Below are positions 4,141 through 4,356 of a stretch of DNA of 10,045 nt, one piece after another. Within the stretch, counting starts at the first letter, position 1. Every line of letters begins with the position of its first letter. The notes below the pieces were generated by a model that saw only the letters and a program-made list of their open reading frames with translations, was not told the origin of the DNA and searched no databases. The DNA lies in the IMG/VR virus record IMGVR_UViG_2703718777_000022. The stretch is one strand, 5' to 3'. The position numbers and the translations under genes were made by a program. The stretch comes from a virus. Taxonomy: Duplodnaviria; Heunggongvirae; Uroviricota; Caudoviricetes.

Positions 4141-4356
4141 ATGCCATCTAAATACCGGGATAATCCACTTTATTACAGGGCTGCAAGGGAGGCTTTGCGA
4201 CTTGAACAATTCGGCGAATATGACCGGGCAGCGAAGGTCTGGGCAAAAGCCAACCGCGAATCACATCACGAACTGAATCAGGAATGGAGTGAACGCAGAT
4301 CTGATTTTTGCCTGATGCAGAATATGCGTGAAAAGCGTAAGGCGGTCGAAGAATGA
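4141..4356 (+). CDS. small hypothetical protein, possibly a PerC/ANR-like prophage regulator
   Basis: 71-aa ORF starting 6 nt after the polymerase stop; its stop overlaps the next start (ATGA at 4353-4356). The segment ALRLEQFGEYDRAAKVWAKA resembles the A-x2-LE-x2-G-x3-RAA-x2-W pattern I recall for PerC/ANR-type small regulators. That recall is not verified. Confidence 0.4.
   Translation: MPSKYRDNPLYYRAAREALRLEQFGEYDRAAKVWAKANRESHHELNQEWSERRSDFCLMQNMREKRKAVEE

Follow-up and report, generated by a model that had tools for sequence, protein, structure and literature searches.

On the evidence of its sequence, a 71-residue protein encoded in the early operon of an Escherichia coli prophage belongs to the ANR (AraC Negative Regulator) family and not to the PerC family. 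Its gene is a real gene under purifying selection, and it stands in a phage replication module as a fixed anchor flanked by two variable accessory-gene slots. The window, meaning the whole stretch of DNA that was analysed, is 10,045 nucleotides long and comes from IMG/VR virus record IMGVR_UViG_2703718777_000022. The ANR identification is already public knowledge, as the family was described in work from 2014 to 2023 and this exact protein is so named in RefSeq; our own contribution lies in the fixed position, in the evidence of purifying selection, and in a parallel with the prophage context of Rnr, a characterised ANR.

Identification of an ANR-family protein

The open reading frame runs from ATG to TGA and encodes MPSKYRDNPLYYRAAREALRLEQFGEYDRAAKVWAKANRESHHELNQEWSERRSDFCLMQNMREKRKAVEE, a protein of 8721 Da (8.7 kDa) with a computed pI of 8.85. 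The earlier note had suggested, from a sequence motif, a small regulator of the PerC/ANR class. A regular-expression search finds that motif, A-x2-LE-x2-G-x3-RAA-x2-W, as an exact match at residues 18-34, and profile searches uphold the ANR half of the suggestion while the PerC half falls away (see below). Against the NCBIfam model NF033650 (ANR_neg_reg), which has a curated cut-off of 32 bits, the protein scores 69 bits (E 2.3e-19) over model positions 2-54 of 54, above the scores of two reference proteins, Rnr (56.9 bits) and a plasmid-encoded ANR (51.2 bits). Among PHROGs, phrog_2227, a family with no function assigned, matches at E 6e-24, and weaker matches are to families labelled transcriptional activator. 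In the annotation of NZ_AP042506.1 the exact 71-residue product is named "ANR family transcriptional regulator" (WP_032314216.1).

For comparison at the level of single residues we used Aar, encoded on plasmid pAA of EAEC 042; Rnr of EPEC E2348/69, whose gene was found in that genome by way of a published knockout primer; and the plasmid ANR WP_106421907.1. A five-way alignment of these three with the 71-residue protein and its homologue from phage YeP5 has invariant columns at A18, E22, A30, W34, A37, W49, R53, F56 and C57. The published consensus signature of the family comprises A10, E14, A22, W26, A29, W43 and R47, plus a conserved Cys (PMC4983702, PMC4038620) that is reported to be highly conserved across the family (PMC4038620). 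All seven of the published residues are present in the 71-residue protein, together with the conserved aromatic-Cys pair. Mutations of A14, E18 and A26 are reported to abolish the activity of Aar, which also needs W45 (PMC4983702); the corresponding residues here are A18, E22, A30 and W49. The protein likewise lies within the size range of the family (<10 kDa; 39-80 residues). The divergent arrangement seen in EAEC and ETEC, with an AraC/XylS gene as neighbour, is absent, and neither the prophage nor the 49-kb region has an annotated AraC-family gene. Such adjacency cannot be family-defining, since Rnr also lacks an AraC neighbour.

Prophage setting and translation signals

Several E. coli chromosomes match the window at 100% identity; the strains come from cattle and from humans, and several of these hosts are STEC. 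In NZ_AP042506.1 the prophage beside yfhL is apparently complete, and the window is its end nearest to the integrase. That the gene is prophage-borne, as the earlier note had it, is confirmed by the integrase gene (8173-9576, minus strand), by yfhL from 9785 onward, and by phage structural genes upstream of the window in the matching chromosomes. The same note had called a place inside a replication operon unusual, and here the evidence points the other way: the place is invariant for the subfamily, and rnr, too, lies in a prophage early operon.

Gene order in NZ_AP042506.1 starts with a CI-like repressor, two hypothetical genes, a DUF2800 nuclease and a DUF2815/Enc34-type SSB. It continues with a 199-residue gene on the opposite strand, the family-A DNA polymerase (PolA), the 71-residue gene, a DUF4406 gene and a VRR-NUC/PD-(D/E)XK nuclease, and it ends with two Arc-family genes, orf58, a Rha-type antirepressor-like gene, an SNF2 helicase, an excisionase-like HTH gene and the integrase. 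The features nearest to the ANR gene are collected in Table 1.

Table 1. Features in and around the ANR-family gene, in window coordinates.
Feature	Position	Strand	Evidence
Family-A DNA polymerase gene, upstream neighbour	2072..4135	+	annotated 'DNA polymerase'
AAGGA Shine-Dalgarno sequence of the ANR gene	4127-4131	+	sequence; within the final polymerase codons
ANR-family gene	4141..4356	+	ORF; NF033650 69 bits; phrog_2227; WP_032314216.1; dN/dS 0.10
Motif codons 18-34 (end of helix 1, turn, helix 2; A18, E22, A30, W34)	4192..4242	+	regular expression; alignment
Helix 3 codons 49-57 (W49, R53, F56, C57)	4285..4311	+	invariant columns
ATGA overlap of ANR stop and DUF4406 start	4353-4356	+	sequence; ORF coordinates
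DUF4406 gene, downstream variable slot	4353..4652	+	Pfam PF14359, 116.7 bits
VRR-NUC / PD-(D/E)XK nuclease gene, downstream anchor	4642..4911	+	annotation; Pfam VRR_NUC match weak, 19.7 bits

The Shine-Dalgarno sequence ends 9 nt 5' of the ATG (4141), and the TAA stop codon of the polymerase gene occupies 4133-4135. The ATGA overlap at the other end of the gene is the layout that translational coupling with the DUF4406 gene would be expected to show. A consensus scan of the plus strand near the ANR gene finds neither a promoter-like nor a terminator-like site, and the GC content of the gene, about 50%, is the same as that of the flanking genes. An origin of the moron type was considered for the ANR gene and dropped, because it has no promoter or terminator of its own and its GC content does not deviate.

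Several other features of the prophage deserve record. The 199-residue reading frame between the SSB and polymerase genes (1446-2045, minus strand) has a GC content of about 31-37%, against about 46-58% around it, bears hydrophobic stretches at both the N- and the C-terminus, occurs in just a few related loci, and has no match in Pfam, NCBIfam or PADLOC. It looks like a moron, and may possibly be a membrane-acting exclusion or defence gene. PADLOC reports no defence system for this reading frame, the ANR protein, the DUF4406 protein or orf58. The two Arc-family genes (4908-5382) are convergent, one on each strand, with 3' ends that overlap at 5053-5084 and almost the same N-terminus in both products, beginning MSKRDDPQLRVRIP. 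They are followed by orf58 and the Rha-type antirepressor-like gene in a region running to 6541, a layout that recalls the immI region (arc/mnt/ant) of P22, a second immunity region. A gene for a VapE-domain primase/helicase (L001:14180-16366, in NZ_AP042506.1) appears in the annotation as a pseudogene, with an internal stop, so this copy of the prophage may be replication-defective.

Conservation, spread and fixed position

We compared 105 related loci, which come from annotated sequences (an E. coli chromosome and phage records), from GTDB genomes and from IMG/VR. The ANR reading frame is intact in 102 of them, with homologues of 65-86 residues, and its median pairwise dN/dS is 0.10 (NG86 method; 2692 pairs with dS between 0.1 and 2.5). 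Across 25 homologues that are 58-94% identical to the 71-residue protein, 26 columns are invariant. Close homologues in this identity range, 70-86 residues long, occur in Escherichia, Klebsiella, Salmonella, Citrobacter, Enterobacter, Kluyvera, Cedecea and Edwardsiella; almost every named one bears the label ANR family. When 1.84 billion representative proteins were searched with a profile, just 116 came up at E <= 0.001, mostly stand-alone proteins of 55-90 residues.

All 105 loci have the nuclease gene VRR-NUC on the strand of the ANR gene and downstream of it, and the C-terminus of the polymerase is encoded upstream, again on the same strand, in 103, the other two being cut by a contig end. 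This order of PolA, ANR and VRR-NUC holds in Escherichia, Klebsiella, Xenorhabdus, Sodalis, Erwinia, Pectobacterium, Yersinia phages YeP4-6 and the APSE phages of Hamiltonella. The spacers vary widely, from 3 to 1308 bp between PolA and ANR and from -26 to 826 bp between ANR and VRR-NUC, and the 105 loci show 70 distinct combinations of spacer length. DUF4406 occupies the slot between ANR and VRR-NUC in just a subset of related loci. Other occupants beside the ANR gene include DUF7446 in other E. coli strains, and phage vB_EcoM-606R2 has a TIR-like gene between its polymerase and ANR genes. Serratia phage Smarc4, with a polymerase 46% identical to that of the window, carries in the same slot a diverged ANR-like reading frame that scores 28.4 bits, just below the cut-off of NF033650.

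The gene is found in 146 of 5426 complete E. coli genomes (about 2.7%), of mixed pathotype and source, and carriers of this prophage copy include STEC, ETEC and UPEC isolates. It matches in two pieces in a minority of the complete genomes and is truncated in phage vB_EcoM-606R2 and in APSE-1, while the APSE-7 copy, which was fetched separately, is frameshifted and annotated by its depositors as a putative pseudogene. In APSE loci the ANR-like reading frames (L107:1490-1707 and L003:6031-6171) keep their position in frameshifted or truncated form. This decay suggests loss of function in an endosymbiont setting, and because these copies are broken the gene must be dispensable in at least one lineage. 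In one E. coli homologue (P0003), AAKVW is present three times in tandem, in frame, within helix 2, where the ANR signature is most conserved.

Predicted structure

An AlphaFold2 model built from 27 homologues predicts helices at residues 9-23, 27-40 and 44-70, with a mean pLDDT of 81, in line with the three helices predicted for the ANR family. Pfam matches no DNA-binding family in the protein. No solved relative was found by sequence, the best PDB match being a WD-repeat protein at E 1.4, and neither PDB nor BFVD yielded a fold match to the model at E <= 1e-3. Its best fold neighbours, none significant alone, are phage proteins likewise called ANR family, together with TPR, Sel1 and MIT modules; the subfamily profile also weakly touches repeats of TPR/MIT-containing proteins, again with no single match significant. 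The best 50 of 429 Foldseek matches to PDB include no H-NS structure.

TPR and MIT modules are protein-binding folds. The pattern G-x-Y-x2-A-x3-W-x2-A at residues 25-37 (window 4213-4251) resembles, on our reading, a TPR motif. The TPR/MIT-like neighbours, the three-helix model and the lack of a match to any DNA-binding family fit a protein-binding adaptor better than a DNA binder. As far as the model goes, the fold neighbours back the class of fold and add no function.

Proposed function and alternative readings

The characterised ANRs Aar, Rnr and Cnr are described as acting purely through protein-protein contact without binding DNA (PMC4983702, PMC5570504, PMC10148876). The same sources report that ANRs bind the central linker of AraC/XylS activators, blocking dimerisation and DNA binding, and that they bind H-NS-family proteins and alter H-NS-dependent silencing. 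Binding to H-NS-family proteins is reported for Aar, ANRVibrio, Cnr-2 and Rnr (PMC5570504, PMC10148876).

We consider it probable, by analogy with these proteins, that the 71-residue protein is an adaptor free of DNA binding that acts on host AraC/XylS-type activators and/or H-NS and is expressed from the early operon. We infer this role because all the residues known to matter are kept and because of the early-operon setting. Since it shares the early replication/recombination operon with the phage polymerase, the two would be produced at the same time, and the protein would for that reason act mainly at prophage induction or infection. Going by other family members, its candidate partners would be the linker of AraC/XylS-type activators and H-NS-family proteins, through which host transcription, and possibly that of the phage, might be reprogrammed by way of H-NS and/or AraC-type regulators, for example GadX and GadW. 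Both GadX and GadW are present in every E. coli. The occurrence of the gene in genomes of mixed pathotype, and also in phages of non-pathogens, makes H-NS and the chromosomal AraC-type regulators plausible targets; its spread across E. coli pathotypes fits a target common to all hosts. Against the proposal, the prophage does not show the classical pairing of an ANR gene with that of its cognate activator, and the APSE copies are broken, as described above.

The ANR proteins matter because they damp virulence of diarrhoeagenic E. coli, both AggR-dependent fimbriae and LEE type-3 secretion via H-NS and Ler. If the present protein is active, induction of the prophage, or leaky expression from it, could shift acid-resistance or virulence regulons; if the operon is silent in the lysogen, only in induced cells would host virulence be affected. 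The fixed position together with purifying selection suggests a benefit to the phage itself. In our literature search for phage-borne 'ANR family transcriptional regulator' proteins, no paper on the PolA-linked subfamily came up. The ANR identification as such is routine, being given by public annotation, and the synteny result adds to it modestly.

A broader view is possible, though we think it less likely than not. ANRs may at root be host-takeover factors of temperate-phage early operons, for instance adaptors that are made at induction and act against H-NS or against activators, with Aar-like plasmid ANRs as domesticated offshoots. On that view the present subfamily would belong to the core of the APSE-like PolA module, conserved at one position from E. 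coli prophages to insect-symbiont phages. It would anchor two slots that collect TIR-like, DUF4406 and DUF7446 accessory genes, and it would serve phage development more than host virulence.

The rival that survives best, although we judge it unlikely, places the protein within the phage's replication/recombination apparatus or its regulatory circuit, for instance as an adaptor for the polymerase, VRR-NUC, the SNF2 helicase or a phage repressor/antirepressor, with its likeness to ANRs reflecting no more than a shared small helical protein-binding fold. The strict linkage to PolA and VRR-NUC, which extends from Escherichia to APSE and has a diverged counterpart in Smarc4, would agree with this, as would the start signal within the last polymerase codons. 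Agreeing too are several residues that are invariant in the subfamily and lie outside the ANR signature (D7, P9, L10, Y11, N46, Q47, M59, Q60 and R63). Linkage and subfamily-specific residues together could mean a phage-specific partner instead of a host one. Yet relatives of the polymerase occur in 1589 phage records and tblastn finds relatives of the ANR protein in just 19, and phage mckay and a Liberibacter phage have the replication module with no ANR-like gene. The module therefore needs no ANR, as these two phages and most PolA-bearing phages do without one, and an obligate replisome subunit, which we also considered, was judged unlikely with more than 1500 phage records showing the polymerase and no detectable ANR. 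The adaptor confined to phage partners is further opposed by the conservation here of all residues required for the action of Aar on AggR, and by the functional interchangeability of ANRs from a Mu-like prophage and from virulence plasmids.

Far less probable is a PerC/Pch-type activator of the LEE1 (ler) promoter of attaching-effacing E. coli, comparable to the prophage-borne Pch of EHEC. The Pfam PerC profile (PF06069) does match residues 16-67, weakly (E 0.0022), one close homologue has a precomputed PF06069 match, the 'transcriptional activator' PHROGs match weakly as noted above, and STEC are among the host strains. However, the score of 18.7 bits is below the gathering score of 22.6, for which reason PerC membership was dropped; the match covers profile positions 5-56 of 90, the N-terminal part; and NF033650 scores far higher. 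Moreover, a PerC-annotated protein from an E. coli phage-inducible island, when tested, repressed the LEE, and its authors suspected it of being ANR-like (PMC11773190), while Rnr is also reported to repress the LEE (PMC10148876). Scarcely credible, finally, is a chance reading frame or decayed remnant with no function, for which one might cite its very short length and the broken copies in APSE-7, vB_EcoM-606R2 and a minority of E. coli genomes: chance is excluded by the intact frames, the low dN/dS and the invariant columns described above, and the gene has a Shine-Dalgarno sequence and a start-stop overlap with the next gene.

Comparison with characterised ANR proteins and other systems

The reading we prefer, an early-operon adaptor for host regulators, finds its closest parallel in Rnr (RegA-negative regulator) of EPEC E2348/69 and Citrobacter rodentium, a protein of 77 residues that is 37% identical to the 71-residue protein over 46 residues (18-63) without gaps. 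Rnr is reported to bind H-NS and Ler, to repress the LEE and to be interchangeable with Aar (PMC10148876). In E2348/69 (L108:2035-6364) its gene is part of a Mu-like prophage's early operon and directly follows genes for a MuA-like transposase, a MuB-like ATPase and a DUF3164 protein. Each of the two genes is thus found close behind the replication genes in a temperate prophage's early operon, with no adjacent AraC gene, but the Rnr phage is a Mu-like transposable prophage, whereas the present prophage has an APSE-like PolA module, and the N-termini are unlike (MHQDIKEYRAGN versus MPSKYRDNPLYY). Placing Rnr in the same subfamily was considered and dropped on account of the identity of 37%, the different N-terminus and the Mu-like context. 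A tblastn search of phage records found no relatives of Rnr. The Rnr of C. rodentium has been described as lying in a predicted phage region (PMC4038620), and in the accessible text of the ANR papers a phage location is mentioned for this copy only.

Aar (AggR-activated regulator) of EAEC 042, the archetype of the family, is 21% identical to the 71-residue protein, with the seven signature residues and the Cys aligning without gaps from A18 to C57. The two share three predicted helices and the lack of a DNA-binding domain, but aar is reported to lie near aggR on the pAA virulence plasmid and to be activated by AggR, whereas the present gene lies in a phage operon without an AraC partner. A protein designated 'AnrSalmonella' is reported to have complemented aar (PMC4983702). 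The Cnr-type plasmid ANR (WP_106421907.1, on NZ_CP069544.1) is 40% identical over residues 10-57, without gaps, and both proteins score above the NF033650 cut-off; its gene stands alone, with two AraC-family genes and a CS22-family fimbrial operon as neighbours, whereas ours is embedded in an operon.

PerC/Pch activators, like the 71-residue protein, are small and helical and are carried by mobile elements in pathogenic E. coli, and the sequence similarity, over about the first 56 profile positions, is weak, but PerC activates ler, whereas the ANR-like proteins that have been tested repress the LEE. With T7 gp5.5 and H-NST, small phage or island proteins that bind the oligomerisation region of H-NS, the analogy is one of function only, as our searches found no relation of sequence or fold to either; this parallel is also drawn by the authors who studied Aar and H-NS. 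Taken across the characterised members, the phage early region is a recurring context for ANR genes, and adjacency to an AraC-family gene is typical of the plasmid members.
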